Origin: an uncultured Bacilli bacterium
GTDB taxonomy: Bacteria; Bacillota_I; Bacilli_A; RF39; UBA660
DNA: 63,753 nucleotides
NCBI GenBank assembly: GCA_947629255.1
Contig: CANRDF010000003.1
Coordinates: forward strand, 1-63,753
Reading direction: 5' to 3'
The translations under genes and the position numbers were made by a program. A model generated the notes under the pieces. That model saw nothing but the letters and a program-made list of their open reading frames with translations, did no database searches and was not told where the DNA came from. Positions 808-54,034 of the stretch are shown piece by piece (position 1 is the first letter of the stretch; each line of letters begins with the position of its first letter).

Positions 808-808
808 A

Positions 809-1111
809 TTAAATATCCAATGCCTCAATACGATCATCTTTAATCATAGATGCATTAAAATCACTTAATTTTTTCATAAATTCCTTCTGTTCATCGTCAC
901 TATATCCTTCAAAAAAAACTTTTTCAATTTGATCTCTATTAAAAAGCAAAACCTGTTCACTATCTAAGAATCCCTCAGGATAAAGACATCCACTATAATC
1001 ATACATTTCTTTTTGATTATCATTATTAACTGCTAAATATCCCGTAACCATAACCTTTTTAGTCCCACCTTTTAAAAGTATTACACTTCCAATTGATAAT
1101 ATCTTATCCAT
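809..1111 (-). CDS. DUF4176-family protein (common accessory gene of T7SSb toxin loci)
   Basis: ORF 809..1141. 'MDKILSIGSVILLKGG..MVTG..YDYSGCLYPEG..F..IEKVFFEGYSD' follows the DUF4176 pattern. An AGGAGG RBS sits ahead of Met11 at 1111. Confidence 0.8.
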   Translation of the reverse strand: MDKILSIGSVILLKGGTKKVMVTGYLAVNNDNQKEMYDYSGCLYPEGFLDSEQVLLFNRDQIEKVFFEGYSDDEQKEFMKKLSDFNASMIKDDRIEALDI

Positions 1112-1171
1112 AAATCCTCCTTTTATCCATTTAATTGTCATTGATTTATCAAAAATTTTAAATCTGTTAAA

Positions 1172-1393
1172 TCATTTCAATCTTCCTTGATTTTCTTTAT
1201 AGGATTGAATGATTTGTGAGACTTCATCTTCGCTAATTTCTGAATAGAGTACATTCGCATCCACTAAGATACTCATAAAATATTGTTCATGAATCCATTC
1301 TCCATCTTTACTCAAATAATACATAAATGTATCATCTTCTAATTTTAAAATTCCACCTTGATTTAATTTAAAATAACGTGTCTTTTTATTCAT
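1172..1393 (-). CDS. small hypothetical protein (73 aa) in the toxin/immunity operon
   Basis: It has a GAGGAAAC RBS and starts 13 nt after the stop of the ARH gene. I recognise no family. Confidence 0.5.
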   Translation of the reverse strand: MNKKTRYFKLNQGGILKLEDDTFMYYLSKDGEWIHEQYFMSILVDANVLYSEISEDEVSQIIQSYKENQGRLK

Positions 1394-1405
1394 AGTTTCC
1401 TCTTT

Positions 1406-2542
1406 TCATAACTTTCTTTTCTCTTCTTTTTTAAAAGATTTTAAGAATTGATTTGTGAGTTCTTTAATATACTCTACTTTTTTTAATTTACGAATCCATT
1501 TATCAGGAATATTTTTCATTCCATAAATAATTCCATTCATCGACCCTGTAATAGCTCCGATAGTATCTGTATCACTTCCTAAATTAATTGATTTTAAAAC
1601 GGCTTCTTCATAACTTTGACTTTGAAGTGTACTCCAAAGAGCAGCCTCCAAAGAAGAAACAACATATCCATTCGACTGAATCTCATCTTTAGATAGAGAT
1701 ATGAAATCTGATTTTAAAATTCGATTAAAATTTCTGACTGTTTCCATAGAATAATATTTCTCATAAGGAATTTTCTTAAGATTTTGATACGCTTCAAGTG
1801 GATACTGGCCATCAAGCAAAAATTTCACATAATCGCAATAAATTTTACAAGCCAAACAACTAATTTCATGTCCATGAGTCAAAGAAGAGAATTGATTTAC
1901 AAGATTCACTTCTTCTTGAAAAGAAAAATCTTGTTTTTTTAAATAATAAGCAACAGGGAACATTCTCATTAAAGAACCATTCCCATTATCTTTAATTTTT
2001 CTTCCCCCACAAGCGGTAGCAGGAAGATGTTTTTCAAAATTTTGAAGTGCTAAACAAGTCGTGATACCAATATCAAATACTTCATCAGTAGCCGTATACT
2101 TTCCTTTACGATACCAATCATCAAATCTTTGCATCATATCTTCAAAAGAAATGGAAGGTTCGGTCAAAATGGAATCCATCGTTGCAAGCACCAAAGAAGT
2201 ATCATCACTCCAAGTTCCTTCCGGCACCAAATGAGTCCCAAAGGACAGCATATCTTGAACAGGATGTGCTTCTAAAGTATTTCGAGCTTGAAACTCAACT
2301 GGAACTCCCAACGCATCTCCAATAGCAAATCCAATCATACCTGCTTGATATTTGTTTTCCATATCTTCTTCTATAGAAGAATGATCTTTTGTAATAGGAG
2401 GAAGTCCCATTTGTTTTAAAAGTTCATTTCTTTTTTGAATTAATTTTTGTACATCCATTTTAATTTCTTCTTCTGTTTTATCACTCGTATGAATGGTAAA
2501 CTGAACATCTGGAATTTTACTCTCTCGACTCATCTTAATCAC
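1406..2542 (-). CDS. ADP-ribosylglycohydrolase (ARH/DraG-like), candidate immunity protein for the upstream ART toxin
   Basis: Motifs 'GFAIGDALGVPVEF', 'WSDDTSL' and 'GSDTDTIGAITG' are typical of the ADP-ribosylglycohydrolase family. The gene begins about 10-20 nt after the toxin stop (GTG at 2542 or ATG at 2533). Confidence 0.85.
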   Translation of the reverse strand: MIKMSRESKIPDVQFTIHTSDKTEEEIKMDVQKLIQKRNELLKQMGLPPITKDHSSIEEDMENKYQAGMIGFAIGDALGVPVEFQARNTLEAHPVQDMLSFGTHLVPEGTWSDDTSLVLATMDSILTEPSISFEDMMQRFDDWYRKGKYTATDEVFDIGITTCLALQNFEKHLPATACGGRKIKDNGNGSLMRMFPVAYYLKKQDFSFQEEVNLVNQFSSLTHGHEISCLACKIYCDYVKFLLDGQYPLEAYQNLKKIPYEKYYSMETVRNFNRILKSDFISLSKDEIQSNGYVVSSLEAALWSTLQSQSYEEAVLKSINLGSDTDTIGAITGSMNGIIYGMKNIPDKWIRKLKKVEYIKELTNQFLKSFKKEEKRKL

Positions 2543-2552
2543 TTCCTTTCAT

Positions 2553-5500
2553 TTATTCTATTATACACTGAATAATAATTTTTCTCAAACCATTTACATC
2601 TTCTGTAGGAGGAAAAACTTTTACCATTTTAAGAGTAGTATTTTTCGCCAATAAAAATTCATTTTCTGAATTATAAAATTCTGATAATTGATTAATATAA
2701 GCTCCCTGTGTTCCTTTATCCGCAATAATATCTAACACAATTGGATAACCTATATCTTTAGCAAAAGAAGTAGAATAACATGGAGATGTACTCATATATC
2801 CTAAATCTCCAAAAGTACAACCTTCTAACACAGAAAGTGTAGCATAAACTTGATTTAAATCGTTTGTATCCACACCCTCAAAAAGTTCAGCATAAGCGGA
2901 ATTCTGTTTAAGAAAAGACCCTACTGTAACACCTCTAAAAAGTTCAGTTGCAACTTCAAGTCCACCATATTTTTGAATTGCACTATCAATCGCATCAACT
3001 GTCTTTTGATTTGCAGAATTTAAATATTTTATACGTAAGGCTTGATTAATTGTATTAAATCCTCCACCTGTATAATATGCTAAAGCTTGAATCTCATCTT
3101 TATTCAACTGTTTAAGAAATTTTCCTTCAATAGTAGATAAAAAATCAATATATTTTTCCTTATCTATACTACTTCTCAAATTTTTATAAACTTCATTACT
3201 AGTCTTCCCTTTTTTAAATAATTCACAAACCACATTTCCAGCATCACCATAATACTTACCCATTTCATTACGTCCTTCAAAACTTTTTAAAGAAAAACGT
3301 TTATATTCTTGTGGGATTTCTTTATTTGATTTAGATTTATATTGCATAATTTTTGCAAAATTAAAATTATTTTTTTCTATGATTCGATCAAGAATATTTT
3401 TTAAGTTTACTTTAGGATCTGAAGAATCCTGACTAGCATTCATCGCGTCTAAAACATAATTTGGAAAATCAAAATATTTTAAAGAGCCCAAATAACCTTC
3501 TAATTCATTTATTGCATAACTTAAAAATTCAAAACCATCATCTTTAATATCACCTTTTTTTATAACTTGTTCTATTAAATACTTTTTCCAAGGTTGATCT
3601 CCATTTTTTTCATAAAACTGAATAACTTCGCACATTTCATGAAGAGTTTTATATTTACTTAAAAATTGATCATCCATTGGAGCATCTTGTGTTTTAAACC
3701 GTTGATAAATTTTTAAATCTTCCATAGATGTATTATAAAGTAAAGCATATTTTTCATTAGGCTTCATATTTTCTTTAATCAGTGGAATGGTATCATCAAT
3801 TAATTGAGAATTATTTGATGTCAAAAATTGTTTCAAAGCCGCTTGTAAATTTTGATGACTTTGATTTAATTGAGCATAAAAGGAAATAGAATCACCTTCT
3901 GCGATTTGAACTTTCAAAGGAAGCTCATCCAAAGAATATGTTCCATTCTTTTTTATTTGATCCAAAATACCTGTACTAACGTTTTCATTTTTTAAATTTT
4001 CAGAAATGGTCAAATAAAGATTATCTAATTCTTTTTGAATTTTTGGTAATCTTAAATTTTGAATTAATTGTTCAATTTGAGGTAACCTTGAAGCATTAGA
4101 AGCAATGTTCTCTACAGAAAGGTATGGAGTAATTTGATCTATTTGAATTTGATTTAATATTTGAACAAAAGCGTTCGGATCTTCCACTTGATCATATATT
4201 TGATAAATAGAATTCAAATCATTCTGACTTACACTCTCTAAATTAGAATAATTATATAACTCATAACGTCCTCCCAACTTCTGCATCATTTCATTAGAAA
4301 AGAAATAATCTGCCGAACCACCAGAAGATCTATGAAGCAAATCTAATGCTAATTCAGAATTTGCCTGATAAACCGTCACAAAATTTTGTATCACATCATT
4401 ACTACTACCACCAAAATAATGCATTCCTACTTTTGAAAGAATTTCATAATTTTGAGGAGAAAACAATTCAGTAGCAAAATTTTCTTCTAAAGAAATATCG
4501 GTTGTATTAAATAGATAGTTTTTAAAATTATTAAGATATCCATCAGGAAGTTCCTGAAATAAATTCGAAGCAGAAGAAACCAATTTTATTTTTTTCTCCA
4601 TACGATCAACAGAATCCATAGAACTTGGAACTTTGACTTTCGATTGATTTTTTGCCATTGCACTAGATGCCTCAATAATTTCTTTAGCAGTAGATTTATT
4701 ATTTTGATAAATTTCATAATATGGATGATTTTCTTCTTTTGTTTCAAAGGAAGCCCTTGTATGAAATTGTAATTCAAATTCAACCCCTTCAGGAGTAACA
4801 ATTTGAGTATTAATTCCTTGATAAGTTGTTTGACCCCAAGAATTTTTAAAATACGGAACACTACATCCTTGTTTCATCAAAGAAGTAAGAATACGATTGA
4901 CTTCACTAGCATATTGATTATCATCAATTTGAAAAGTATATCTTAAAGCATCATTCATAGTCTTTCCTACTTCAGTATAACTACAGTCTGTTGCATTTGC
5001 ATATTTCTGTATTTTCTGTATAAGTCTATCAATAGATTTAAATTTATGCTCTAATCCAACTAATTGAGTATCTGAAGATTCAAAAGTTTGAAGTAATTTA
5101 GTAATAGGAGGTTCTTTTAAAACTGCATCTTCATGCACATCCCATGCTGCTTGTGCTAATTCTTGTCCATATATTTTCTTAAACTGTTGAAGCTCTCGCT
5201 CACGAATATTAGAGAATTGATCATTAGAAACATCTTCTTCGAAAGACGCATTTTCTAGAATAGAATGTACTTCAGAAATATTCGCATGTGCTTCTTCTAC
5301 ATTTGCATTAGAAAAAACTTGAAGCAATTTTTGTAATCGTTTCTTAGAATATGACCAATCAGAAGCTAAACCAATAATCACAGATTCAGCTTTTCGTAAA
5401 GCAGAAGAAATTTTATTAGAAGAAGCATTTGTTTTATAATTTTCATACTCTCCCTTACTGATTTCTTTATAAACCAATTGGCCATTTTCTTCTGTAAGTC

Positions 5501-8495
5501 CGAAATAAACAACAGAATAGTTTCCTTCATCTAATATATAATTTCCATCATAAGAGACAGCTTCATCCACTAAATCTCTATAACGAAACTGACTAAGTTC
5601 TTCAGGTGAAACATTTATTTTAATTGCTATTTGTTTTTCCGATAAGTTTCCTGTATTCATAGCCAAATCAGAAATATTAGGAATACCTGCAAAGAAAAAA
5701 CTTTTTTTATTTCCATAAGAGCTTACATAATCCGAAGCTTTTATGTATCCAGATTCTTGAATTTTCTGTATATTACTTTCATTTGTAAAATGATACAATC
5801 CTTCTTTTAATATTTTTTGAGAAAAACTAGAAGAATTGGTAACTGGAACATATCGAAAAAAGAAGGGAGCACTTGTAAAAGAAGTCAATGTACTAGCAAC
5901 AGCTTTAGGTAAGGAAGATAAAGCATTTTTACCAAGCATCATTTTAACATTAGAGTTTTCCGTAATCGTCTGTTCCATGGAAGAAAGGTTATTCACACCA
6001 GCAAAAGCAGGTTCTAATTCTTGAACAGGTCCAAAATTTAAATAAGAAATATTATCTTTGATTTGATCAATTTTAGCATTCAATGAACTTTTAGAATTTT
6101 TAAGTAGATTCCCCAATAAAGTACTAACACCTGAAGAAGTAACATTTTTACCATTTGCATTTACAAGACTAAGCGTAACTTCTTTTAAAGGTTTACTATA
6201 TTCTTGCATAATTTCGTTAAAATTCATGGAAGCTGTTTCAGGCAATAATTCATGAAAACTATTTTCTATCTCAGTCGTTGTTACATTCCCAGCTCTCACC
6301 TGTTCTTCAATTGTCCGAATACTACTACTATTAATAGCCAAACTAGGTATATTCATGATTCCACCAGTAATCCCACCATAAATTCCAGATTGTAAAGCAT
6401 CTTTAGTAGTACTTACAAAATCAAAATCTTTTTTTAAAATGAGACTACTGGCCCCTGCATCTACATAACTTTGAATAAATTCTTCTTGAAATTCTTTTCC
6501 CATTGCTTGAGCCATAGTCTTCAAATTTACAACTTTTGTTTCACTTATAAGAGGCATTGCTCCTAATGCTTTTTCTAACAGAACTTCACTCGCACCACTT
6601 AAAGCACCATATGCCATGGATTCTCCTCTACTATAACCTTCTGTCATCGCACTATGATAAGAACCTCCAGCAGCACTTGTACCAAGGAACATCGTACCAG
6701 CAAAAGGATTGATTGCACTAAGTCCAATACTTGGAAGCATGTTTCCTATAGATTCGCTAATTTGATAATTATGTTCTGTAAATTTACCATAATCTTTTGT
6801 ATAATCAATAATATCTGATGTACTGATTTCTTCTCCTAACGAATTTCTCGTAACAAGTCCTTGATCAAATTTTGTTTTATCACTAGATAAAGCTTGAACA
6901 ATATACATGTTTTCATATTCTTGAGTACTTATTTCTCTGTTTTCTTTAAAAAAACCTTCTATCATATACCCCAAATTATTAAAAACACCTGTAATTCCTT
7001 CTCCAAGTCCCTTTCCCGTAATCTTTAAATGATTAGTAACTGCAGAAGCTCTATTTGCTTCATCTAAAGAAGTCAAAGTATTTAAAAATTCATTTGCTTG
7101 AACTTCTCCACAAAATTGATGAATTTCATTTTTATAATCTTCTAAATATTGAGTAGCAGCTTGAGCTCCAAAATTTTGATAAGCAAAAGAATAATATTTT
7201 CCCATATCTTTTAAACTATCCACACTTTGAATCTTAGCTAATTCTTTTAATAATTCACCGTTTGTAACTCCTTCTATTGTTACATCATCACCATATATTT
7301 CAATTGCCTTTTTTGTAAAAGTTAGTGGATCCACATCTTTATGCATTTCTGCATACTTAGAATAGTTAGCTACTGTATAAGACTGCACGATATTCTGGTC
7401 ATTTTGTACCACAGTAGAAACAGAGGAAACATCATCTTTAGATATATCTTTGATTTTAAAATTTTGATACTCTTTTGTTTTACTCATAACTGTATATTGA
7501 ATTCCCTTAGCTGCAGACTCTATTTGCTGTTTTTCATTACTAACTTCATATAATCTCTTTTGAGCATCTGTTATCTTTTCTATAAATGTATCAAAATTTC
7601 CATACTCTGTATCTTCAAACATGGAATCATATCTTTTATAAACATTATCTATGGAAGAATCTTTCTCTAATAATATTTGACTAATTTCATCCACAGATTT
7701 ATTCTTAAATTCTTCTCTACTCATTCCTAACCATTCAAAATAATCGTCACTTAAAGCATCAACTTCATCTTTAGACTGCATAGCAAGCCCTCTTGCCTCA
7801 CGAGCTGCACTTTCTTTCATTTCATTGATTTTGTCTAAATCAAAATCCACTCCTGTCATTTTAGAAAAAAATTGATTTAATTCATCATATTCTTTGGAAC
7901 AGGCCTCATATTTTTCATTTACTGTTTTTATATCTTTATTATACATATTTGTTAAACTACTACTTATTTTATAAACTTCTGTTGCATTTAATTCTTCTCC
8001 ATTAAAATACTTATTTAATAATACATTTTTTTGTTCCTGTTTCATCATTATTTGAGAAGCTATCATCGTTTGTAAAGTAAAACTAGAATTTCCAAAAGTA
8101 TTAGAAGAAGATACTCCAAAACGAGAATTATAAGAAATAATAGATAATTTTCCTGATAATGCCATTTTTGTAAAAGTTAATGTAGAAAATTTCCCAGTAG
8201 TATAAGTAGATAAAGAAGAATTCAAAAAGCTATAATGGTTTTGTGATAATACTTTTTCAACTGCATGAATATCATTTAAATAATCCTTCCACCATTTTTC
8301 AATTTTAGTATAAGAAGTTAAAATATTTTGAAATTGCTCATTTAATCTACTTCTCATTAAAGAAACATAAACATTAGAAGAACTTCCAATATAAGATGAA
8401 TCAAAACCATACTTTTTAATATTTTTTAAATTTTCAGAAGCACTTACAAAGTTATTATAATTATTTTCAAATGTTTTTAAATTTATTAACTTCAT
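2553..8495 (-). CDS. 1980-aa multidomain polymorphic toxin, putative T7SS substrate, with a C-terminal ADP-ribosyltransferase domain
   Basis: Single uninterrupted ORF directly downstream of essC, a yukD-like gene and WXG-like genes. It has a helical N-terminal region, Gly/Ala-rich hydrophobic segments (aa ~585-720), an RSH-like segment (aa ~1140-1265) and a C-terminal R-S-E ART signature. Confidence 0.85.
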   Translation of the reverse strand: MKLINLKTFENNYNNFVSASENLKNIKKYGFDSSYIGSSSNVYVSLMRSRLNEQFQNILTSYTKIEKWWKDYLNDIHAVEKVLSQNHYSFLNSSLSTYTTGKFSTLTFTKMALSGKLSIISYNSRFGVSSSNTFGNSSFTLQTMIASQIMMKQEQKNVLLNKYFNGEELNATEVYKISSSLTNMYNKDIKTVNEKYEACSKEYDELNQFFSKMTGVDFDLDKINEMKESAAREARGLAMQSKDEVDALSDDYFEWLGMSREEFKNKSVDEISQILLEKDSSIDNVYKRYDSMFEDTEYGNFDTFIEKITDAQKRLYEVSNEKQQIESAAKGIQYTVMSKTKEYQNFKIKDISKDDVSSVSTVVQNDQNIVQSYTVANYSKYAEMHKDVDPLTFTKKAIEIYGDDVTIEGVTNGELLKELAKIQSVDSLKDMGKYYSFAYQNFGAQAATQYLEDYKNEIHQFCGEVQANEFLNTLTSLDEANRASAVTNHLKITGKGLGEGITGVFNNLGYMIEGFFKENREISTQEYENMYIVQALSSDKTKFDQGLVTRNSLGEEISTSDIIDYTKDYGKFTEHNYQISESIGNMLPSIGLSAINPFAGTMFLGTSAAGGSYHSAMTEGYSRGESMAYGALSGASEVLLEKALGAMPLISETKVVNLKTMAQAMGKEFQEEFIQSYVDAGASSLILKKDFDFVSTTKDALQSGIYGGITGGIMNIPSLAINSSSIRTIEEQVRAGNVTTTEIENSFHELLPETASMNFNEIMQEYSKPLKEVTLSLVNANGKNVTSSGVSTLLGNLLKNSKSSLNAKIDQIKDNISYLNFGPVQELEPAFAGVNNLSSMEQTITENSNVKMMLGKNALSSLPKAVASTLTSFTSAPFFFRYVPVTNSSSFSQKILKEGLYHFTNESNIQKIQESGYIKASDYVSSYGNKKSFFFAGIPNISDLAMNTGNLSEKQIAIKINVSPEELSQFRYRDLVDEAVSYDGNYILDEGNYSVVYFGLTEENGQLVYKEISKGEYENYKTNASSNKISSALRKAESVIIGLASDWSYSKKRLQKLLQVFSNANVEEAHANISEVHSILENASFEEDVSNDQFSNIRERELQQFKKIYGQELAQAAWDVHEDAVLKEPPITKLLQTFESSDTQLVGLEHKFKSIDRLIQKIQKYANATDCSYTEVGKTMNDALRYTFQIDDNQYASEVNRILTSLMKQGCSVPYFKNSWGQTTYQGINTQIVTPEGVEFELQFHTRASFETKEENHPYYEIYQNNKSTAKEIIEASSAMAKNQSKVKVPSSMDSVDRMEKKIKLVSSASNLFQELPDGYLNNFKNYLFNTTDISLEENFATELFSPQNYEILSKVGMHYFGGSSNDVIQNFVTVYQANSELALDLLHRSSGGSADYFFSNEMMQKLGGRYELYNYSNLESVSQNDLNSIYQIYDQVEDPNAFVQILNQIQIDQITPYLSVENIASNASRLPQIEQLIQNLRLPKIQKELDNLYLTISENLKNENVSTGILDQIKKNGTYSLDELPLKVQIAEGDSISFYAQLNQSHQNLQAALKQFLTSNNSQLIDDTIPLIKENMKPNEKYALLYNTSMEDLKIYQRFKTQDAPMDDQFLSKYKTLHEMCEVIQFYEKNGDQPWKKYLIEQVIKKGDIKDDGFEFLSYAINELEGYLGSLKYFDFPNYVLDAMNASQDSSDPKVNLKNILDRIIEKNNFNFAKIMQYKSKSNKEIPQEYKRFSLKSFEGRNEMGKYYGDAGNVVCELFKKGKTSNEVYKNLRSSIDKEKYIDFLSTIEGKFLKQLNKDEIQALAYYTGGGFNTINQALRIKYLNSANQKTVDAIDSAIQKYGGLEVATELFRGVTVGSFLKQNSAYAELFEGVDTNDLNQVYATLSVLEGCTFGDLGYMSTSPCYSTSFAKDIGYPIVLDIIADKGTQGAYINQLSEFYNSENEFLLAKNTTLKMVKVFPPTEDVNGLRKIIIQCIIE
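2556..3113 (-). other. C-terminal ADP-ribosyltransferase toxin domain (C3/VIP2-like R-S-E type), aa ~1795-1980
   Basis: 'YYTGGGFNTINQALR', then 'ELFRGV' (Arg1854), 'GYMSTSP' (S-T-S at 1902-1904) and 'NSENEFLL' (E-x-E at 1944-1946). Confidence 0.8.
4701..5078 (-). other. possible RelA/SpoT-homologue (RSH / toxSAS-like) nucleotide pyrophosphokinase segment, aa ~1140-1265
   Basis: The order 'EHKFKSIDRLIQKIQK' .. 'NDALRYTFQI' .. 'YQGINTQI' .. 'VEFELQFHT' .. 'HPYYEIY' mimics the RSH synthetase motifs (R/KxKxxxSxxxK, DxxGxR, YxxxH, ExQxRT, HxxYK). This is pattern recognition only. Confidence 0.4.
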
Positions 8496-8512
8496 AACAG
8501 CTTCCTCCTTCT

Positions 8513-8905
8513 TTAAATACTTTCATCAATGCTTATTTTTAACTCTTTTCTTTCTTTTTCATATGCTGTAATAGACCTTTGCAATGAACTAATAAAAGAA
8601 TAATCAGGCTCTTCTTTACTATTCTCATTAGAAATAGATCGTTCTAATTTAGTAATTTTATTTCCTAAATCTTGATAACGACCAATTTTATCAGCAATAA
8701 AATTATAATTCTGTATTAATTCTTCTAAATCTTTATATTTTGAAAGAAGGATATGAATAGCAGATATTAAATTTTCTTTTGCATTTGTTTCCAAAATTGT
8801 TGAATTATTAAGATCTTTTAATATATCTTCTTCTTTCGTAGTAGAAAGAGATTCACTAAGAGTTTTTAAACATGCTTTTAATGTTAATACATCAACGTCA
8901 TCCAT
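8513..8905 (-). CDS. small helical protein upstream of the toxin (candidate chaperone/targeting partner)
   Basis: ORF 8513..8950 trimmed to Met16 (MDDVDVL), which has a GAAGGTGG RBS. The sequence looks all-helical. Its start overlaps the stop of the upstream gene by 8 nt, indicating operon coupling. Confidence 0.55.
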   Translation of the reverse strand: MDDVDVLTLKACLKTLSESLSTTKEEDILKDLNNSTILETNAKENLISAIHILLSKYKDLEELIQNYNFIADKIGRYQDLGNKITKLERSISNENSKEEPDYSFISSLQRSITAYEKERKELKISIDESI

Positions 8906-9200
8906 GAAAACCACCTTCAAATAAACTAGCCATTTTTTTCTCAGCAGCATTATGATTATCTATAACTCCTGACACATAGGAACATAACTCAGTCATTGCC
9001 ATTTGCAAATCAGGAATATTTTTTAACAAAGAAGAATACCTTTGTTTTACGTAAGAAGCACCTGCTCCCTCCCAATAAATATTTTCATTCAATTTTTTTT
9101 CGCAACTTTCTAAAACCGTTATAATTGCTTCCACCCTAGTTTTTAATTTTTTATACTCTAACAAAGCATTTTCAACATTTTCATATTGAAATAAGTCCAT
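8898..9200 (-). CDS. WXG100-like small helical protein (100 aa)
   Basis: It is 100 aa long with a central 'YWEGAGASY' W-x-G hairpin motif and lies in a T7SS context. Confidence 0.65.
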   Translation of the reverse strand: MDLFQYENVENALLEYKKLKTRVEAIITVLESCEKKLNENIYWEGAGASYVKQRYSSLLKNIPDLQMAMTELCSYVSGVIDNHNAAEKKMASLFEGGFHG

Positions 9201-9209
9201 TTAAGTCAC

Positions 9210-9512
9210 CTACAATTCTATTTTTTGAGATTGATATTCTGAATCAAGCTTATTATATAAAGAAACAGCATTCTGAATATAATCTGCAATTTCTTGTAGC
9301 TCTGAAGCCATAAGTTCAATACTATGAACATAAGAATCGTTTTCTACTAAAAGAGTAGAAACAAAATGAGTATAGCTTTCTCCTTGCCAAGAAGAGGCTA
9401 AAGACCGTGTAATATTAGAAAGACTTTTACAAACATCTTTCATATTATCTGATTGTTTGGAAATCATTGCACTTAACTCTAAAAGTTTTTCCTCATCTAC
9501 TTTGATATTCAT
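9210..9512 (-). CDS. WXG100-like small helical protein (100 aa)
   Basis: It is 100 aa long with a central 'SWQGESY' W-x-G motif and lies in a T7SS context. Confidence 0.7.
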   Translation of the reverse strand: MNIKVDEEKLLELSAMISKQSDNMKDVCKSLSNITRSLASSWQGESYTHFVSTLLVENDSYVHSIELMASELQEIADYIQNAVSLYNKLDSEYQSQKIEL

Positions 9513-9544
9513 ATTCGACTCTCCTATTTAAAGATATCACTAAG

Positions 9545-9805
9545 TTAAAAGAAAATCAACCTTTTCCCATTTTTTAAGCCAGACTCTTTCACTGATACTT
9601 CTGGATCATAAAAAATATTTTGTTCACAATCATATAACGCATTTTGAAGGTCTAAAGGAAACACATCATTACTTATTTCATGAATAGAACGAGCAATCAT
9701 ACAAATAACATCTACAATTTTTTTGTTTGGTGGTAAAAATACTTCAAATTCTTGATCTAACTTAATAACATAAATGGAAACAAAAATTTTATTCATTTTC
9801 TTCAC
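9545..9805 (-). CDS. esaB: EsaB/YukD-like ubiquitin-fold T7SS protein
   Basis: It is 86 aa long and overlaps the essC stop by 17 nt. Size and position match EsaB/YukD. The sequence call itself is weak. Confidence 0.55.
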   Translation of the reverse strand: MKKMNKIFVSIYVIKLDQEFEVFLPPNKKIVDVICMIARSIHEISNDVFPLDLQNALYDCEQNIFYDPEVSVKESGLKNGKRLIFF

Positions 9806-12800
9806 CTTCTAACAATTTAACTAAAGTTGGACTACCATTACGAACCACATAACCATATTCTAATGAAATTTCATCGTAACAATATTTCGGTGTCTTTGAT
9901 AGTTTCAAAACAAATTGATCTGTAATTCCATTTCCAACCCATATACCTTGATTATTCATAACATAGTCTCGATACCAAGATTCCATTTCATACTTTTTAA
10001 GAACATAGCTAGCATCGAAAAGAACAAGATTAAATTTTTCTAAATCATGGCCAATTTGTAACATATGTTCAAAGTCTTCTTTCCGTTTTTTAATAATTTC
10101 TAAGAATTCTTCTATACCATACACAACCAAAGTTAAATGAGTATATTTTTCTTTTCGAGCTTCATCTTTTTGATTAGATTCATAATCTTTCTCTAATTTT
10201 TCTAAATAGTCATACGCATATTGAAAAACATCTTGAATTTTTTTAGTATAGTAATATTTAGTATGAACCTTTTTTGCATCTAAATGAGCCTCACTATCAA
10301 GAACGAATACAGAGTGATTTGATAAATGCTCAAAAGAATCTATAAGTCCATAAGTAAAAGATTGCAGAGATTCGAACTCCTGAGCAGTAACAATTTGAAT
10401 AAGCCGGGATTGAAAATTGAAACGCGCGAGCTCAAGAGTATCTTTAGCAACTCCTACCACAAGTTGATCTAGCGTATTATATGGAACAGAAAGACTTGAA
10501 TAATAAACATTGTCAGGTAAAACAGGAATTCTTTTTGCATATGTTTTATAATACTGTTTTAATTTCAAACACAAATTAGGAACCACTTCAACAACTTTCT
10601 CTTTTTCACAAATATGGGCAGTTTGAAATTCATAAACTTCCCCTCGAATTCGAGTAATCCCTCGTCCAAATTTTTTAGAAGGATAATTTTTTTGAACATT
10701 TCCCAAAATATTTGCATATTCATCTTCATTATTAAGTTGTAAAGAATAAATAGACTTAAAGTTTTGAAATAATTTAATTCTTACACTATTAGAATTAAGA
10801 ACACTAATCAAAAAGTAAATCCCATATTTTGTCGCTTCTCTAGTAATAGAAACAAGTTCTTCTTCAAAATTTTCAAATAATTCTTTAAAGTTCTCGTAAT
10901 TATTTAGGATAACTACAATATTAGGTTCTTTTTTTTCATTCTTAGCATTGTAACTTTCAAACGTTCCTCCAAAATTCATAAATTTAGATTTACGAATTTG
11001 AATTATCTCATTTAACATTTTAAATAAATTAGTCACTTTCTCTGTATCGGATGAAAAAACAACATCTCCAACATGAGGAGCATCAAGAAACATTTTTAAG
11101 GTTTCTGCCCCAAAATCCATAATATAAAATTGAATTTCATCTGGAGTATGATGCAATATCGAAGAAGTAATAAAGGTAGTAATAAAGTTTTCTTTCCCAC
11201 TTCCACTTGCACCATATAATAAAACATTACCTTCCTTTGTCATTGGAAGAGTAAGTAATGCTTGACTTTGCGTAGACGGTGAATCATACTCTCCAATAAT
11301 TTCATCAATAATATATGGCAAACTTTTATAATGATATTTCTTTTCTAATTCTGTCGTCGTAATAAATTCTGGAATAGGAGGCAACCACAAAGGTTCTATT
11401 TGAATTTGCTCTTTCTGAGCCAAATCAGAAATATACTTTAAAACAGCTGGAAGTTCTTCTCCTTTAAAACTCGCTTTTGCAGTTGCATCTTCTTGTTCCA
11501 CTGTTTTAATAATCTTACCAACATTGTCCACAAAATCAATAGATGAATCTATTTTTGCTTTTCTTTCTTTCATCTCATAATATGGAGCTCCTGTCCAAGC
11601 AGATTGTCCCATAGCAAAGAACTCATTATATCCAACTTGTAAATAAAACCGACCAACTGTTGATAAAGAAGCAGCATCAGGCACTTTAATCATATCCATA
11701 CTATCACTACGATCTTGAACCTTTAAACATACCCGAAATTTAGAATTGCTCCATATTTGAGCATCCACAACACCACTAGGTTTTTGAGTAGCCAAAATTA
11801 AATGGACTCCTAATGATCTTCCGATTCTCGCTGTAGATATCAGTTGGGTCATAAATTCAGGTTGTTGACTTTTAAGTTCAGCAAATTCATCACTAATAAT
11901 GAAAAGATGCGGAATTGGCGTTTTTACAAGTCCTTGATGATAAAGTTTCTGATATTTATAAATATTAATAGTACTTTCATTTGTTTGTTCCCTTGCTTCG
12001 TTAAATAGCCTTTGTCTTCTTTTTAATTCACTCTCAATAGATGCTAAACTTCTTTTAATTTCGACTGTATCTAAATTCGTGATCGTACCAGCTAAATGTG
12101 GAAGTTTAATACCAAGCTCTTTATTTTCAAATGCACCAGCAAGTCCACCACCTTTATAATCGATTAATACAAAAGAAACATCATCTGGATGATAATTTAA
12201 AGCCATTGATAAAATATAGGTAATAATAAATTCAGATTTACCAGAACCAGTCATACCAGCTACTAATCCATGGGGCCCATGAGCCTTTTCATGTAAATCC
12301 AAAACAAACAAACCACCATTTTGATTAATACCAACTGGAGCCTGTAAAGTTTCATAAGAATGATTGGTCTTCCAACGATTCAAAGCATTTAATTGTTCCA
12401 CATTTCCTACATTATACATTTCCAAAAAACTTACATTATCAGGAATACTTCCCTGTTTTTTCGTAAATTCAATAGGTATATTGCAAATTGCTTGAAAAAT
12501 TGGATTCAATGAAACATTCAAAAATTCAGCTTGAAAAACTTGTTGTCGATCGGTTGCAAGTTCATTTTCAATCATACCAGATTGATTGGCATCTACATTA
12601 ATAAAAGAATTACATTCATTAGGAAGCCCCATTAATCTTTGATTAATAATAAGAAAACTAAAACCATAATTTACTTTTGATTTTAATACATTTTTGACAA
12701 AATCAAAATCTCGAATACTTTCAAAATTATCTGTAATAATCACATAATAAGGCAAAAAGTTTGTATAATCTTTATTGTTAAGTTTGCCACTATCTTGATC

Positions 12801-14351
12801 AATAAAACGATTTTCGAATTCTTCATTTAACTTAGCACAGACAGAAAAAATCTCCTCTTTTGTCTCTCCATAATACCGAAATGTTCTTTCATTATTCCAT
12901 AAATAAGGAAGTTTTTTTAAATTTTTCCATTTATAGCTCGAGTCTTTATCAGTAAGAATCACAAATTTTACATCTTCATAACTATGGAAAGCAATAAATT
13001 GTAACAATATAGTATTTAAAAAAGACGGAATTAATTCAAAATTTCCTAAAATTGCACAAACATTTTTTTGAACAAAAGACACATTGATAGGAACATTTTT
13101 TAACATTCTTGGCTCTTTCGTCATTTGAAATACTTCTTTTCTTAAATTATCATTATCTAAAGAAAAATGTTCCTCAGGAAAATTCACTTTAATTTTTGCT
13201 GGAATTTCTCCAATCCCAATATGAGCCGTTAAAAAGTCATCGTGATCTATCTTTCTCTCCCAGAGATTTCTTCGATGATGAAGTATAATATCCATACATT
13301 GTTCTAGAGAAACGCTATTAGCATTTAAAGATTGTTGTTGTTCTTCTATAATTCGATAAATTTCTTGTTTTTTCATCGCTAAATATTCCATATATTTTTC
13401 CTGACGTAATTGTTCATTTTTTAAAGTTTGCTTTTTTTGATAACGTCTAGTCAAAATAGGAATACAAAGCATACCAACTAACATAGAAGAACCAAGAACT
13501 ATACCTGGTAAAGAATTTCTAAGTGTAGTTTCACCTCGAAAAACACCGCTAAGGGAAAGAAATAATGTCACCATCGAACTCATTCCCATAGTTAACATAG
13601 ATCCCATTTGAAGTAAAAAAGGAAGTTCTTCTTTTACCCCACTAGTTGGAGGAGCATCAATAGTTATGGATACTTCTGATATCACATTTCGAAATCTTGG
13701 AGAACGATAAAAATAATCTTTTTTTTCATAAATACTTTCAATATCTAATTGATTATCAACTGATTCTTTTAAAGTAGGAATAGGAAGACTTGTAATTTGT
13801 GACTGAACAATTTTTCTCTTATCATTAGGATTATCAATTGCAAAATAAGAACCAAGTACATAAATATTTAAGCCATTTATAAAAATATGATCTCCAGATT
13901 CCAACAACTTTCCTGATGTTAATATTTGATTAACATATACAGGATTCTGAGCATTACTACATTGCATAATCCAAGAATTATTTTTTTTAGCAAATAAAAC
14001 TTTGTCTTGATAATCACTATAAACGATATCAGCATCAGAATTTCCTACGCTAAATTTATCTAAAGATTGAAATAAAAAAATTTCTAAAGTAGAATTATAC
14101 AATGGTAACGTATATAAAACAACATTTTTATTTTTATAAGATACAGAATAAAAATGAAAAAACTCTAAAATAATTTTTTCTGATTGTTGATTCAAATATA
14201 CCCAATGTCCATCTGACGCAAAAATATTCAAAATATTTTTTTTGACTTCTGATTCATCATAAGCTTGTACCCAATAATTTCCATCTATGACATTTGGTAA
14301 GGAGTAGATTTGATAGGAATTTGCTGATTCAAAAAAAATTAGTAATTTCAT
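9789..14351 (-). CDS. essC: T7SS FtsK/SpoIIIE-family ATPase EssC
   Basis: It is 1520 aa with an N-terminal FHA-like region and two TM segments (aa ~240-300). The P-loops are 'GMTGSGKSEF' and 'GASGSGKENF', and 'FIISDEFAEL' is a Walker B. Confidence 0.92.
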   Translation of the reverse strand: MKLLIFFESANSYQIYSLPNVIDGNYWVQAYDESEVKKNILNIFASDGHWVYLNQQSEKIILEFFHFYSVSYKNKNVVLYTLPLYNSTLEIFLFQSLDKFSVGNSDADIVYSDYQDKVLFAKKNNSWIMQCSNAQNPVYVNQILTSGKLLESGDHIFINGLNIYVLGSYFAIDNPNDKRKIVQSQITSLPIPTLKESVDNQLDIESIYEKKDYFYRSPRFRNVISEVSITIDAPPTSGVKEELPFLLQMGSMLTMGMSSMVTLFLSLSGVFRGETTLRNSLPGIVLGSSMLVGMLCIPILTRRYQKKQTLKNEQLRQEKYMEYLAMKKQEIYRIIEEQQQSLNANSVSLEQCMDIILHHRRNLWERKIDHDDFLTAHIGIGEIPAKIKVNFPEEHFSLDNDNLRKEVFQMTKEPRMLKNVPINVSFVQKNVCAILGNFELIPSFLNTILLQFIAFHSYEDVKFVILTDKDSSYKWKNLKKLPYLWNNERTFRYYGETKEEIFSVCAKLNEEFENRFIDQDSGKLNNKDYTNFLPYYVIITDNFESIRDFDFVKNVLKSKVNYGFSFLIINQRLMGLPNECNSFINVDANQSGMIENELATDRQQVFQAEFLNVSLNPIFQAICNIPIEFTKKQGSIPDNVSFLEMYNVGNVEQLNALNRWKTNHSYETLQAPVGINQNGGLFVLDLHEKAHGPHGLVAGMTGSGKSEFIITYILSMALNYHPDDVSFVLIDYKGGGLAGAFENKELGIKLPHLAGTITNLDTVEIKRSLASIESELKRRQRLFNEAREQTNESTINIYKYQKLYHQGLVKTPIPHLFIISDEFAELKSQQPEFMTQLISTARIGRSLGVHLILATQKPSGVVDAQIWSNSKFRVCLKVQDRSDSMDMIKVPDAASLSTVGRFYLQVGYNEFFAMGQSAWTGAPYYEMKERKAKIDSSIDFVDNVGKIIKTVEQEDATAKASFKGEELPAVLKYISDLAQKEQIQIEPLWLPPIPEFITTTELEKKYHYKSLPYIIDEIIGEYDSPSTQSQALLTLPMTKEGNVLLYGASGSGKENFITTFITSSILHHTPDEIQFYIMDFGAETLKMFLDAPHVGDVVFSSDTEKVTNLFKMLNEIIQIRKSKFMNFGGTFESYNAKNEKKEPNIVVILNNYENFKELFENFEEELVSITREATKYGIYFLISVLNSNSVRIKLFQNFKSIYSLQLNNEDEYANILGNVQKNYPSKKFGRGITRIRGEVYEFQTAHICEKEKVVEVVPNLCLKLKQYYKTYAKRIPVLPDNVYYSSLSVPYNTLDQLVVGVAKDTLELARFNFQSRLIQIVTAQEFESLQSFTYGLIDSFEHLSNHSVFVLDSEAHLDAKKVHTKYYYTKKIQDVFQYAYDYLEKLEKDYESNQKDEARKEKYTHLTLVVYGIEEFLEIIKKRKEDFEHMLQIGHDLEKFNLVLFDASYVLKKYEMESWYRDYVMNNQGIWVGNGITDQFVLKLSKTPKYCYDEISLEYGYVVRNGSPTLVKLLEGEENE

Positions 14352-14413
14352 CTAACCCACTTCCTTTATTCTTAAAAAGAATTATAGCATAAAAAAAGAA
14401 GAAAGAAAAGAAA

Positions 14414-14436
14414 AAATAACCTTTGAAAGGTTATCT
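14414..14436. repeat. target-site duplication, left copy (AAATAACCTTTGAAAGGTTATCT)
   Basis: An identical 23-mer recurs at 16104..16126, immediately outside the IS inverted repeats. The 23-mer itself contains the hairpin ATAACCTTT/AAAGGTTAT. Confidence 0.85.
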
Positions 14437-15944
14437 CAGATTGTTGACAAAAGCGGTATATTCAAAAAGAGTATATCTCTTTTTTTCATATTTTGAAAAA
14501 AAATTGTTAATTTTGAAAAAATCAGTGAAATAATGGCCTTTTTTGGATGACTTTTCCATCTCCAATTTGCCATTTTCTTTAAATTATGACATGCAAAAAT
14601 CATCGTGGAATTCTGTTCATTTTTGAGTAATCCACGAACTCTAGTAAATCGAAGACCATGTTGTTCCTTACAATCTCCAAATGTTCTTTCGATTGTTTCT
14701 TTTCGTAAAGGATAATTTTCTTTCCAAAGTTTGGTGTATCTCATTTCATTGGCTTGTTCTTTATACTCTTCCCATATATGTCGAGTGACTACTTTTTGAC
14801 AGTTTTTACTTTTGGTACATCGTTCTCTGAATGGACAATCTTTACATTTCTCTGGATCTGATTTATATTGCTTATATCCTTTTTTATCTGTTGTTGTATA
14901 CGTTAATATTTCATTATTTGGACAAATATAACAATCGTAATATTCATCATATACATATTCATTTTTTTTAAATAAGCCTTTTCCTGTCATTGGTCTTTTA
15001 TATGGCATTAAGGGAATGTGACCTGACAAAATGATTTCTCTACATATCGCTGGATTGATATATCCTGCATCTAAACAAACATTTTTTATTTGATCTTTAT
15101 ATTTCTGATTTAAAAGATGATATGCTTTAAAAAATGCTACACTGTCATGTATGTTTCCTGCTGTTGTCGTTTTTGCTAATACAAATCCATTTTTATCACA
15201 AAACGTTTGATGAGTATAAGCAAAACATTTTTCTTTTTCTCCTTTATGATAACATCCACTTTCTGGATCAGTTATACTTTCTTTAATGTGTTTTGTTTCT
15301 ATGTTTTCAATCACTTCTCCTGTTTCTTCATCAAACATGATTTCTGTCTTTTCTATATTTTTAAGTGGCTTTTTCCCATTCTTTTCTCTATCTTCATTGA
15401 TTTCTTTTAACATGGCATCTTCATATACTTTTTTTACGATTTCTACTTCTACATCTTTGTGTTTATTCTTATTTGCATTTGCTTTTTGATGTGTTCCATC
15501 TCCGAATACGGTTTCCATATCTATAAATCCATATTCCATCGCTTGATTTAAAATCTTATCAAATATTTCATTAAACACATCACTGTCTTTATATCTTCTT
15601 ATATAATTTTGACTCCATGTTGAATAATTTGGAATATCATCATATATTGATAATCCTAAAAACCATCGATAAGCTATATTTACCTTACATTCTTCACATG
15701 TTCTTCTCATGGAATTGATTCCAAATATAATATTTATAAAGATGAGCTTAAATAGTACGACTGGTGGAACACTTGGTCTTCCTCCTATACTGTATAAATC
15801 TTTTACTAGATCTTCTATAAATCTAAAATCCATACAGTGATCTAATTTCCTTACTAAATGCTCCTTGGGTACTAATTCTTCTATCGTACTTAATATTATA
15901 CAATCATTTTTATGTATTTGTTTGGTCATTGCCATTTGCTTCAA
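14436..15944 (-). CDS. DDE transposase (IS1182-like, InsH-type N-terminus)
   Basis: 'LVPKEHLVRKLD', 'GRPSVPPVVLFKL..YRWFLGL', a Cys-rich 'CKDCPFRERC' and the C-terminal 'ERTFGDCKEQHGLRFTRVRGL..NLKKMA'. The last base of the TGA stop comes from the flanking target DNA. Confidence 0.85.
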   Translation of the reverse strand: MKQMAMTKQIHKNDCIILSTIEELVPKEHLVRKLDHCMDFRFIEDLVKDLYSIGGRPSVPPVVLFKLIFINIIFGINSMRRTCEECKVNIAYRWFLGLSIYDDIPNYSTWSQNYIRRYKDSDVFNEIFDKILNQAMEYGFIDMETVFGDGTHQKANANKNKHKDVEVEIVKKVYEDAMLKEINEDREKNGKKPLKNIEKTEIMFDEETGEVIENIETKHIKESITDPESGCYHKGEKEKCFAYTHQTFCDKNGFVLAKTTTAGNIHDSVAFFKAYHLLNQKYKDQIKNVCLDAGYINPAICREIILSGHIPLMPYKRPMTGKGLFKKNEYVYDEYYDCYICPNNEILTYTTTDKKGYKQYKSDPEKCKDCPFRERCTKSKNCQKVVTRHIWEEYKEQANEMRYTKLWKENYPLRKETIERTFGDCKEQHGLRFTRVRGLLKNEQNSTMIFACHNLKKMANWRWKSHPKKAIISLIFSKLTIFFQNMKKRDILFLNIPLLSTI

Positions 15945-16103
15945 CTCCTATTCTAACCATCCTTATTATCTCATATTTGCATGAAAAAAGCGAGATTTTG
16001 CAATGACTTTTTTGGTTAAAATAGGAGTCATTTTTCTCGCCAATTTCATTATAATACTTTTTTTCATAAAAAAAAGACTATTGACCTTTTTGTCAACAGC
16101 CTG
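14437..16103 (-). mobile_element. IS1182/IS5-superfamily insertion sequence
   Basis: The terminal inverted repeats are CAGATTGTTGACAAAAG (left) and CAGGCTGTTGACAAAAAG (right, reverse complement). The element has a single transposase ORF and is flanked by a 23-bp direct repeat. Confidence 0.85.
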
Positions 16104-16126
16104 AAATAACCTTTGAAAGGTTATCT
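16104..16126. repeat. target-site duplication, right copy
   Basis: Identical to 14414..14436. It overlaps the stop codon of the tandem-WXG gene by 1 nt. Confidence 0.85.
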
Positions 16127-16788
16127 TAAGCTCCTCTATCTGCACTTTGAGCTGCCATAGCAGCAGCATTAATGTTGCTAATACAAATATCTAAATTACT
16201 ATATATTTTTGTCATATTCGTATCAGCAGTATTTGTTAAAGTATTTTTAGCAGATTCTGCTGCATCACCATCCCAAATACCTTCCCCACTATTTAACCGA
16301 TTAATAGTAGTTAATAAATTTACTTTAACTCCATCTAATTTTTCTTTGATTTGTTTCAAAGAAGTACCAATGTTACTGATAACTTCATAATCATAAGTAA
16401 CAATTTCCTTATTAATGTTTTCAGCAGCCATTTGACTTAATTGATTAAAACTCAATTCTCCAAAAGATTGAGATACATTGGTATCAAAACCCAAATTAGA
16501 AACTTCTAGCCCAGCTACACTTTTTGCTACTTCATTCATAGTTTGAGCAAAAGCATCTCCAAACTCATTAGAAAAAGCAACTAAAGCATTATGAGTTTCC
16601 ATAAAATTTTGATAGTTTTGATATGCAGCTGCTCCAGTCCAAACTTGAGGTTTAACAAGTTCTGACACTAATTCATTAAATTTTCTAACACAACTTGCAA
16701 CACTATCTTCTTCCCCACTAATAATTTTGATTAAACTATTAGACCAATTTTTTACTGAATCAGGATTGTAAACAAAAGCCATACTCAT
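16126..16788 (-). CDS. tandem (fused) WXG100-family protein, EsxA-like, 220 aa
   Basis: Two W-x-G hairpin motifs occur in one chain: 'VWTGAAAY' (aa ~49) and 'IWDGDAAE' (aa ~163). The C-terminal 'YSNLD' fits the YxxxD/E pattern. Confidence 0.75.
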   Translation of the reverse strand: MSMAFVYNPDSVKNWSNSLIKIISGEEDSVASCVRKFNELVSELVKPQVWTGAAAYQNYQNFMETHNALVAFSNEFGDAFAQTMNEVAKSVAGLEVSNLGFDTNVSQSFGELSFNQLSQMAAENINKEIVTYDYEVISNIGTSLKQIKEKLDGVKVNLLTTINRLNSGEGIWDGDAAESAKNTLTNTADTNMTKIYSNLDICISNINAAAMAAQSADRGA

Positions 16789-18445: not shown

Positions 18446-18680
18446 ATCTTTCACCTTTCCATCCAAAGAAAAAAGCCATGAACGAAAGGACGGAATATGA
18501 TCCGTGGTACCACCTTTCTTCATGACTTACCATGCACTCATTTACTTTAACGGGTAATCCGGTTCAACTCCAGAGCCATCTTCTATAAAAATCTTTTATT
18601 TGCTTTCACCATCCACAAACTCTCTAAAAAAAGATACTTTATATACTCTTTCCTTCGTCATTGAATACCCTAATTCTACC
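18446..18680 (-). promoter_or_regulatory. T-box leader (tRNA-sensing riboswitch) of metG
   Basis: The minus strand reads 'GAAAGGTGGTACCACGG' at 18504..18520, matching the conserved T-box sequence. AGAGAG and GGTGAAAGC Stem-I-type elements lie upstream, with a terminator/antiterminator helix downstream. The outer boundaries are approximate. Confidence 0.75.
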
Positions 18681-28626: not shown

Positions 28627-28645
28627 ATCACCTACCATAAAAAAA

Positions 28646-28716: not shown

Positions 28717-28762
28717 GTATTAATAATAACAAAAGTGCTAAAAAAATGCAATAATTTTTCTA

Positions 28763-32340: not shown

Positions 32341-35356
<3,016 letters not shown>

Positions 35357-53969: not shown

Positions 53970-54034
53970 GTTATCCTCCATTTCTAAATCTTGCATTTTT
54001 AGCAAGATTAGTTCGTTATTATACACGGAAGGGT

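Follow-up and report, generated by a model that had tools for sequence, protein, structure and literature searches.

A candidate pared-down type VII secretion system and its polymorphic toxin cassette in uncultured small-genome gut Bacilli

Can a Firmicutes-type type VII secretion system (T7SS) be built from an ATPase, a ubiquitin-like protein and WXG100 proteins alone? The question is raised by a locus between metG and tatD on a contig from a metagenome-assembled genome (MAG) of an uncultured Bacilli bacterium with about 30% G+C, recovered from rabbit gut metagenomes; the contig, 63,753 bp long, was analysed whole and is called the window. A sequence-only reading had described an EssC-bearing island here with no EsaA, EssA or EssB, and had left three options: a pared-down WXG100/FtsK-ATPase type of T7SS, missing parts encoded elsewhere, or a satellite toxin-export module. 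The evidence now favours the first of these, with the same minimal set found in 41 loci, and disfavours the third, as the locus has its own ATPase, ubiquitin-like protein and WXG100 proteins. On balance we read the locus as an intact, vertically inherited and lineage-wide pared-down T7SS joined to a polymorphic toxin cassette in low-G+C, small-genome gut Bacilli. Its dedicated machinery would comprise only the three parts that are common to all T7SS variants, namely EssC, a ubiquitin-like protein of the YukD/EsaB type and WXG100-type proteins.

The open reading frames (ORFs) and the Pfam assignments of the flanking genes confirmed that about 16 kb separates metG from tatD. All the genes claimed in the earlier reading were present, in the same order and on the minus strand:

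16892-18523, minus strand: metG, flanking housekeeping gene (tRNA-synt_1g, 1e-115)
16126-16788, minus strand: 220-aa double-WXG protein (WXG100 at residues 132-217, second W-x-G at residues 51-53)
14437-16103, minus strand: insertion sequence (IS) element (transposase ORF 14436-15944)
9789-14351, minus strand: essC (TsxC), 1520 aa (TIGR03928, 994 bits)
9545-9805, minus strand: ubiquitin-like gene, 83-86 aa (fold model; profile link to YukD)
9210-9512, minus strand: WXG100 protein, 100 aa (PF06013, 34.1 bits against a cutoff of 27.3)
8898-9200, minus strand: WXG-like helical protein, 100 aa (motif YWEGAGA; weak family matches)
8513-8950, minus strand: helical protein, 130-145 aa (no family match)
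2553-8495, minus strand: giant toxin, 1980 aa (PF03496 at the C-terminus)
1406-2542, minus strand: ADP-ribosylglycohydrolase (PF03747, 7.7e-66)
1172-1393, minus strand: 73-aa ORF (no credible family match)
809-1141, minus strand: DUF4176 protein (PF13780, 1.4e-28)
55-837, minus strand: tatD, flanking housekeeping gene (PF01026, 2e-76)

Intergenic gaps in the island range from -53 to +32 nt, which leaves no space for an overlooked island gene. A 67-aa ORF at 15966-16169 straddles an end of the IS and was rejected as spurious. The toxin cassette looks like part of the same operon as the core genes. A scan for promoters and terminators returned counts equal to the shuffled expectation in the AT-rich DNA of the window, so the operon structure is proposed from gene spacing only.

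EssC is a membrane ATPase of the FtsK/SpoIIIE type with several P-loop domains. It scored 994 bits against TIGR03928 (T7_EssCb_Firm), above the equivalog cutoff of 778, and matched the solved Bacillus subtilis YukB (PDB 9qks) at 2e-125. The first ATPase domain has an intact Walker A motif (GMTGSGKS) and an intact Walker B motif (LFIISDEF). Hydropathy analysis gave a clear transmembrane segment at residues 283-301 and a weaker one at 253-271, which we read as the usual EssC transmembrane pair; no other island protein has transmembrane segments. Residues 1-210 align colinearly with relatives of 44-46% identity that are annotated with PF00498/PF16697 (FHA), and a direct Pfam search of the window EssC gave no FHA match. 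In the second FHA-like module a stretch containing S-x-x-H is deleted in the window clade and kept in the group of about 44% identity. The EssC clade contains more than 120 clusters spanning 43-100% identity, all of full length. An FtsK-like DNA translocase was ruled out as an identity for this protein by the EssC equivalog score together with the WXG and ubiquitin-like neighbours.

The earlier reading had named a pseudogene essC as one way in which its proposal might fail. The ratio of nonsynonymous to synonymous substitution rates (dN/dS), measured against the locus of a close relative (L002; related loci are numbered in this way throughout), was 0.068 for essC, 0.049 for the ubiquitin-like gene, 0.042 for the double-WXG gene and 0.061 for metG. 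essC and the core genes are thus under purifying selection as strong as that on metG, and the low dN/dS together with the intact Walker motifs rules out a pseudogene.

The end of essC and the ubiquitin-like gene share 17 nt, and translation of the latter is coupled to that of EssC. A Pfam search with the 86-aa window protein gave no direct match, YukD included, and sequence profiles of the family found nothing significant among PDB sequences. An AlphaFold2 model built on a 5-sequence alignment reached a predicted local distance difference test (pLDDT) score of 50 and was discarded; rerun with 125 homologues, the prediction gave a ubiquitin-like fold at pLDDT 92.2. In a Foldseek search this model aligned with the ubiquitin-like domains of mycobacterial T7SS EccD at TM-scores of 0.72-0.74, against about 0.6 for ubiquitin; the protein lacks a C-terminal Gly-Gly. 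An exhaustive profile search collected 904 family representatives at 50% identity, none with an annotation in public databases. Among the 126 of them that were scanned, 30 matched PF08817 YukD (best 2.3e-7), by far the commonest family. By the fold model and this transitive Pfam link, the protein is assigned as a divergent member of the YukD/EsaB/TsxB type.

For the third part, the 220-aa protein encoded upstream of essC is the candidate equivalent of EsxA/TsxA, or else a candidate first substrate. It matched PF06013 WXG100 at residues 132-217 (1.2e-6) and TIGR03930 at 130-219 (3.6e-10), and a second W-x-G lies within VWTGAAA at residues 51-53. The gene is kept upstream of essC in L002, L003, L006, L007 and L009. 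An internal duplication was considered and rejected, the two halves aligning in hhalign over only 19 columns around the WXG motif with a probability of 9%; a PDB search with the protein returned no match. Homologues also occur as paralogue arrays or in C-terminally extended forms of 225, 506, 345, 246 and 274 aa (L044 4051-7567; L004 8828-9568; L005 17435-18259). Beyond its candidate role as an EsxA equivalent, the double-WXG unit may also serve as the N-terminal export domain of effectors.

Are the membrane components that normally accompany EssC really missing? The contig screen covered the annotated ORFs of at least 90 aa and three smaller island ORFs, leaving out nested ORFs and gyrB (32341-34296, assigned by position and size only). 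Among the ORFs screened on the 63,753-bp contig, none matched the EssB/YukC, EsaA/YueB or EssA families of Pfam or NCBIfam. With no spare coding space either, the claim that EsaA, EssA and EssB are not in the island stands. EssC relatives were then collected from species-representative genomes and assemblies. ORFs were called on 45 loci and clustered, with a view of up to 10 kb on either side of essC in each relative, and neighbours were counted over 41 non-redundant species-level loci with a full-length essC (the window and 40 related ones).

What recurs in these loci is essC with an overlapping ubiquitin-like gene and, in most cases, small WXG-like genes. The ubiquitin-like gene adjoins essC in all 41 loci and is its only universal neighbour; next in frequency are two families of 60-80-aa helical proteins, present in 23-24 of the 41. 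No conserved membrane family resembling EssB, EsaA or EssA, in likeness or in size, was found near essC in any of the 41 loci: there was no conserved membrane family of about 400 aa and no multi-transmembrane ORF of at least 800 aa conserved beside the gene. Precomputed Pfam annotations within 10 kb of essC (L001, L038, L039, L041-L045) contained no YukC, EssA or EsaA, and the unannotated neighbours of essC in the relatives gave no EssB, EsaA or EssA match in Pfam and NCBIfam. The domains that characterise the further variants T7SSc to T7SSj were also sought, namely the Ser/Thr kinase TsxD, the PPM phosphatase TsxF, the DUF6382-FHA protein TsxJ, the AAA+ ATPase TsfV, the DUF5050 protein TsgL, the EspG-like TsxG and the large Ig-like TsxI; none appeared in the Pfam results of the window or in the precomputed Pfam of the related loci. 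The essC loci lie in at least five housekeeping contexts (metG/tatD, rplM-rpsI, ftsY/ffh, the suf operon and murA), and such variety argues against a flanking block that was systematically missed. Some organisms of the clade are represented by contigs of about 1.27 Mb; L043 was recovered from a human gut metagenome.

One alternative is that a canonical T7SSb is split over the genome, with EssB, EsaA and EssA at unlinked loci and an ordinary essC-effector cluster here. It would suit an EssC that scores above the TIGR03928 cutoff and appears to retain, at its N-terminus, the part to which EssB binds in T7SSb (PMC11217815), and a view of 63.7 kb of one genome and of 10 kb on either side of essC in the relatives would accommodate it. 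Core genes, however, cluster with essC in the described T7SSb and variant systems (PMC11217815), and none is linked to it in any of the 41 species-level loci despite the at least five contexts; the loss of the S-x-x-H stretch from the second FHA-like module is, moreover, compatible with a changed or lost partner. We consider a split T7SSb unlikely.

A second alternative comes from the sister group of about 44% EssC identity. There, a holin-like protein with two transmembrane segments (100-131 aa, 11 loci) is encoded just upstream of essC, as is a signal-less M23/LytM-like peptidase (219-262 aa, 7 loci; phi29 gp13, 3.8e-6). These genes lie between rpsI and essC (L012 7910-8967; L027 8817-9888; also L014, L015, L016, L020, L030, L033, L037 and L038). 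The pair may help to open the wall or be left over from a prophage. If it is an accessory, it would speak for membrane or wall partners that are non-homologous, lineage-specific and not always linked to essC, so that the system would be a new multi-component variant and not a minimal one. Precedents exist: each published variant has its own accessory set (PMC11217815), and the S. aureus T7SSb is reported to recruit a dedicated wall hydrolase, EssH (PMC13059805). The pair is not found, however, in the window island or in its closest relatives L002, L003, L005, L006 and L009, and EssC is the sole membrane protein of the island. Such a multi-component variant strikes us as improbable.

The pared-down T7SS that we favour must still be held against several points that weigh on the other side. 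The view took in 63.7 kb of the MAG and 10-kb flanks, and unlinked essB, esaA and essA or non-homologous partners may lie beyond it. EssA, EssB and EsaA are each needed for secretion by the T7SSb of S. aureus and B. subtilis. The organism appears to be walled and to sporulate, and the wall-crossing ascribed to EsaA is not obviously removed. The strongest hint that a partner still binds comes from the N-terminus of EssC, where an FHA-like region, the EssB-binding part in T7SSb (PMC11217815), seems to be kept. The holin-like and M23-like genes of the sister group suggest that neighbour counting may miss accessory parts in the window clade. Finally, the sequence was found in DNA metagenome runs only.

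Is the locus a newly inserted island? The title of the earlier reading placed it as an insertion in the metG-tatD junction. This is borne out as far as the junction is concerned, with metG and tatD directly adjacent in L003, L006 and L009; a recent foreign insertion is not, as the locus is resident nearby in the same relatives. It follows directly after tatD in L003 and L006, and after tatD-rnmV-ksgA in L009 (rnmV and ksgA being named there from gene size and Bacillus order only). L002 and L005 carry the locus between metG and tatD, as the window does. The G+C content of the island is about 0.25-0.34 and that of the flanks 0.30-0.34. The neighbouring slots in relatives and the similar G+C thus exclude a recent horizontal insertion and mark the locus as an old resident of this neighbourhood that, to judge from synteny, has been shuffled locally over one to three genes.

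Does the IS element tell of damage? It is about 1.67 kb long, encodes a single DDE transposase of 499-502 aa (DDE_Tnp_1_6, 1e-27; DUF772, 1.7e-19; DDE_Tnp_1) and is bounded by terminal inverted repeats of about 17 bp (CAGGCTGTTGACAAAAG / CAGATTGTTGACAAAAG). From the combination of DDE_Tnp_1_6 and DUF772 we take it to be putatively IS1182-like; the transposase of about 500 aa, the inverted repeats of about 17 bp and a palindromic target that gets duplicated are features in common with that family. A direct repeat of 22-23 bp, 100% identical between its two copies, flanks the element at 16104-16126 (left) and 14414-14436 (right). On the coding strand the duplicated 23-nt sequence, AGATAACCTTTCAAAGGTTATTT, is a hairpin followed by a T-run and hence the terminator of the 220-aa gene. 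L002, whose EssC is 94% identical, has no IS, and a single copy of the hairpin follows the stop codon of the 220-aa gene there, ahead of essC; both window flanks of the IS run on as in L002 save for a few base differences and single-base indels. The earlier suggestion that the IS deleted nothing is therefore upheld, by the intact target duplication and by an empty site from which no sequence is missing.

The IS is not present in L002, L003 or L009. Contigs and assemblies from independent runs cross both of its junctions. In rabbit and other gut metagenome runs the interior of the IS shows a read depth several-fold higher and many variant positions, which indicates that the element belongs to a multi-copy IS family found across several of the genomes in those samples. 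An extended -10-like element (T-ATGCTATAAT, TGnTATAAT-like) lies between the IS and essC at 14381-14391 on the minus strand, and reading of the sequences found it at the same position in L002 and L009. The generic promoter scan was not above chance, and by this conserved element essC probably keeps its own promoter downstream of the IS. The insertion itself is recent and probably neutral; it struck the terminator hairpin, which lies after the double-WXG gene and before the essC promoter.

An IS 85 bp upstream of essC, in a sequence known from DNA runs only, could nevertheless be taken as the mark of a decaying or silenced remnant, made non-functional by the insertion or by loss of partner genes. 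Against this, all ORFs are intact; dN/dS, at 0.04-0.07, is no different from the value for metG; the insertion point is the terminator hairpin, upstream of the retained -10-like element; and the same gene set is found at full length in many species. The C-terminus of the toxin and its immunity gene are, in addition, strain-specific, as is typical of polymorphic toxins in active use. We hold decay to be highly improbable.

What, then, would an intact pared-down T7SS export? Residues 1-1071 of the giant protein are 57% identical to the giant of L009 and the two are unrelated beyond that point; the N-terminal 90 aa are conserved in the giants of L003, L006 and L009. Residues 1140-1272 matched the exported alarmone synthetase SaEAS (PDB 8VX3, 1.4e-11) and a model of the XopAD C-terminus (5.5e-29). 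At the C-terminus, where the R / STS / ExE motif can be seen, the matches were to PF03496 ADPrib_exo_Tox (8e-25) and Certhrax (7.9e-5). Pfam LXG matched neither the whole protein nor residues 1-340 alone. By its architecture, the giant is classed as a polymorphic toxin: its N-terminal delivery region is conserved, and its C-terminal part, which is specific to the strain, carries alarmone-synthetase-like and ADP-ribosyltransferase domains. A weak Tox-ART-HYD1 match was also seen at about residues 900-932 (8e-4 on a fragment). The giants of L003, L006, L009 and L039, different elsewhere, all keep the region of about 880-1040, which may have a shared pre-toxin or delivery function and not be a toxin itself.

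The gene directly downstream of the toxin encodes an ADP-ribosylglycohydrolase whose best NCBIfam model is Tri1 (NF041672, 8.9e-55), at 186 bits, below the cutoff of 490. No hydrolase gene follows the L009 giant, whose C-terminus differs, which fits a cognate immunity role; the hydrolase is likely the immunity protein for the ADP-ribosyltransferase domain. The 73-aa ORF that comes next had no credible family match, and no immunity gene is evident for the alarmone-synthetase-like domain. As the only unassigned candidate for that domain, the ORF could, speculatively, encode a second immunity protein. DUF4176, at the end of the cassette, is a family of T7SS toxin chaperones whose function has been described (PMC12478183), and homologues of the window gene follow toxin cassettes in L004, L005, L009, L039 and L044.

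Three small genes precede the toxin. The WXG100 protein at 9210-9512 matched PF06013 above the cutoff (3.2e-8) and TIGR03930 (1.7e-8), is conserved before the giant toxins of L003, L006, L009 and L035, and is likely a Lap-type targeting partner of the toxin. The WXG-like protein at 8898-9200, with a weak TIGR03930 match only (0.069) and conserved synteny, is a putative second targeting partner. A family search with the 145-aa helical protein at 8513-8950 gave no match; its gene is kept just upstream of the toxin gene in L003, L005, L006, L009 and L035, and it would be a third small partner. Its start is probably the internal ATG at 8905, giving the 130 aa called in L001.

Together these assignments suggest how the locus might work. 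The small WXG-like partners would bind the helical N-terminus of the toxin, the DUF4176 protein would stabilise the toxin, and the toxin-partner complex would dock on the ATPase domains of EssC. An EssC oligomer, assembled with the help of the ubiquitin-like protein, might then export the complex through the membrane to poison competitors, and by reversing ADP-ribosylation the hydrolase would protect the producer. On this scheme export would need no EssB, EsaA or EssA. The fuller proposal is that EssC, the ubiquitin-like protein and WXG100-type proteins form a self-sufficient T7SS in walled, spore-forming gut Bacilli, with no EssB, EsaA, EssA or variant accessories; this T7SS would export multi-domain toxins of very large size and would occur widely in the gut metagenomes of animals and humans. 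We offer this proposal tentatively, as possible rather than probable.

How substrates pass the membrane and wall in Firmicutes-type T7SS, and what the accessory proteins do, is still debated. If the proposal is true, a system of ATPase, ubiquitin-like protein and WXG proteins would establish what the minimal functional core is, and structural and reconstitution studies would gain a simple target. It would also extend the catalogue of T7SS variants, built on RefSeq, into uncultured small-genome gut lineages, organisms that spend scarce coding space on large antibacterial toxins. We found no link of a T7SS to these lineages in the literature. With the ubiquitin-like family unannotated, such loci are now annotated as 'EssC plus hypothetical proteins'.

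The remainder of the window bears on the nature of the host. It holds the replication-origin region, with dnaA, dnaN, comK, recF, gyrB and gyrA on one arm and rnpA, yidC, jag, mnmE, mnmG, rsmG and parB on the other. The contig encodes a class A penicillin-binding protein (PBP1) and also carries spoIIR and genes like murA and spoVT, and it is from these genes that the organism appears to be walled and sporulating.

Several further observations concern these surroundings. A T-box leader (18483-18667, minus strand; RF00230, 113.6 bits) lies upstream of metG, and the first 26 or so codons of the 543-aa metG ORF overlap it; the real start is probably an internal ATG (MEKEKYY...), which would make the protein, like those of relatives, about 517 aa long. 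The enzyme lacks the C-terminal tRNA-binding domain of the longer Bacillus form. Two paralogues at 40321-41565 (minus strand) and 58065-59960 (plus strand) share nearly identical N-terminal anchors (the first 55 aa or so) and differ in their extracellular parts, one being 414 aa long with DUF6273 and the other 631 aa with no family match. One of the two sits in the dnaA-rnpA gap at the origin. Two PD-(D/E)XK_2 'transposase-like' (Rpn-type) genes lie at 39354-40199 and 53124-54026, both on the minus strand; one of them is between dnaA and rnpA, beside that paralogue, so that the origin region itself carries inserted genes. A comK homologue (35425-35904, minus strand; 5.3e-39) occupies an unusual position between dnaN and recF, and a small signal recognition particle RNA gene (28630-28727, minus strand; RF00169, 57.4 bits) lies between tadA and dnaX.

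Among known systems the window locus is most readily set beside T7SSb, as in the Ess system of S. aureus and the Yuk/Yue system of B. subtilis. Common to both are an EssC-type ATPase, a YukD/EsaB-like protein and WXG100 proteins, as well as downstream toxin-immunity cassettes with small helical partners and DUF4176; the N-terminal region of the ATPase, colinear with that of FHA-annotated relatives, may be a further common feature. In contrast to T7SSb, no EssB/YukC, EsaA/YueB or EssA/YueC was found in the locus, among the screened contig ORFs or beside essC in the 41 loci. The WXG gene upstream of essC encodes a 220-aa double-WXG protein and not a 100-aa EsxA, and the ubiquitin-like protein is too divergent for direct recognition by Pfam YukD.

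A survey of RefSeq by Garrett, Higginson and Palmer in 2024 described eight extra T7SS variants, T7SSc to T7SSj (PMC11217815). With T7SSa and T7SSb these share only TsxA (WXG100), TsxB (ubiquitin-like) and TsxC (the ATPase); they are without EssA, EssB and EsaA, and each has further components, none consisting of the three parts alone (PMC11217815). Of these, the simple T7SSg and the T7SSb-like T7SSf come nearest to the window locus. A DUF5050 propeller and an ATPase that lacks FHA characterise T7SSg; T7SSf is marked by a PPM phosphatase, a DUF6382-FHA protein and an AAA+ ATPase; and others have kinases, large Ig-like wall proteins or EspG-like chaperones; the candidate substrates of T7SSc to T7SSj are LXG-like toxins with small WXG-like partners (PMC11217815). 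The variant-defining extra parts were not seen in the window or its related loci, and it is by accessory content, not by EssC phylogeny, that the locus is set apart from these variants. The window clade, in contrast to the genomes of the RefSeq survey (PMC11217815), is known here from metagenome assemblies only. A T7SS of three parts alone is not among the published variants, and on the pared-down reading, which we somewhat favour, the window system would be new, pending whole-genome confirmation.

The cassette has its own counterparts. LXG toxin modules of Streptococcus intermedius and S. aureus comprise Lap targeting factors and Ltc/DUF4176 chaperones (PMC10801868, PMC12478183). As in those modules, two or three small helical genes lie directly upstream of the large toxin gene and the immunity gene directly downstream, a small DUF4176 gene is near the immunity gene, and the toxin is conserved in its N-terminal part and variable in its C-terminal part. 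The window toxin differs in having no Pfam LXG match, in its unusual length (1980 aa) and in its two or three enzyme-like domains. Exported alarmone synthetase (EAS) domains have been reported in fusion with WXG/LXG export domains (PMC12691689), and residues 1140-1272 of the window toxin resemble them in matching SaEAS (8VX3) and the Rel-like C-terminus of XopAD. Unlike these, the domain here is internal, with no cognate immunity gene identified, and is followed by about 700 more residues that are predicted to include a second toxin domain. For that second domain the closest parallel is Tre1-Tri1 of Serratia, in which a type VI ADP-ribosyltransferase toxin is paired with an ADP-ribosylarginine hydrolase immunity protein. 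The window likewise has an ADP-ribosyltransferase toxin domain followed by an ADP-ribosylglycohydrolase gene with Tri1 as its best NCBIfam model. It differs from the Serratia pair in a Tri1 score below the cutoff, in a transferase of the exoenzyme C2/C3/Certhrax type (PF03496) and in a delivery route that would be type VII.

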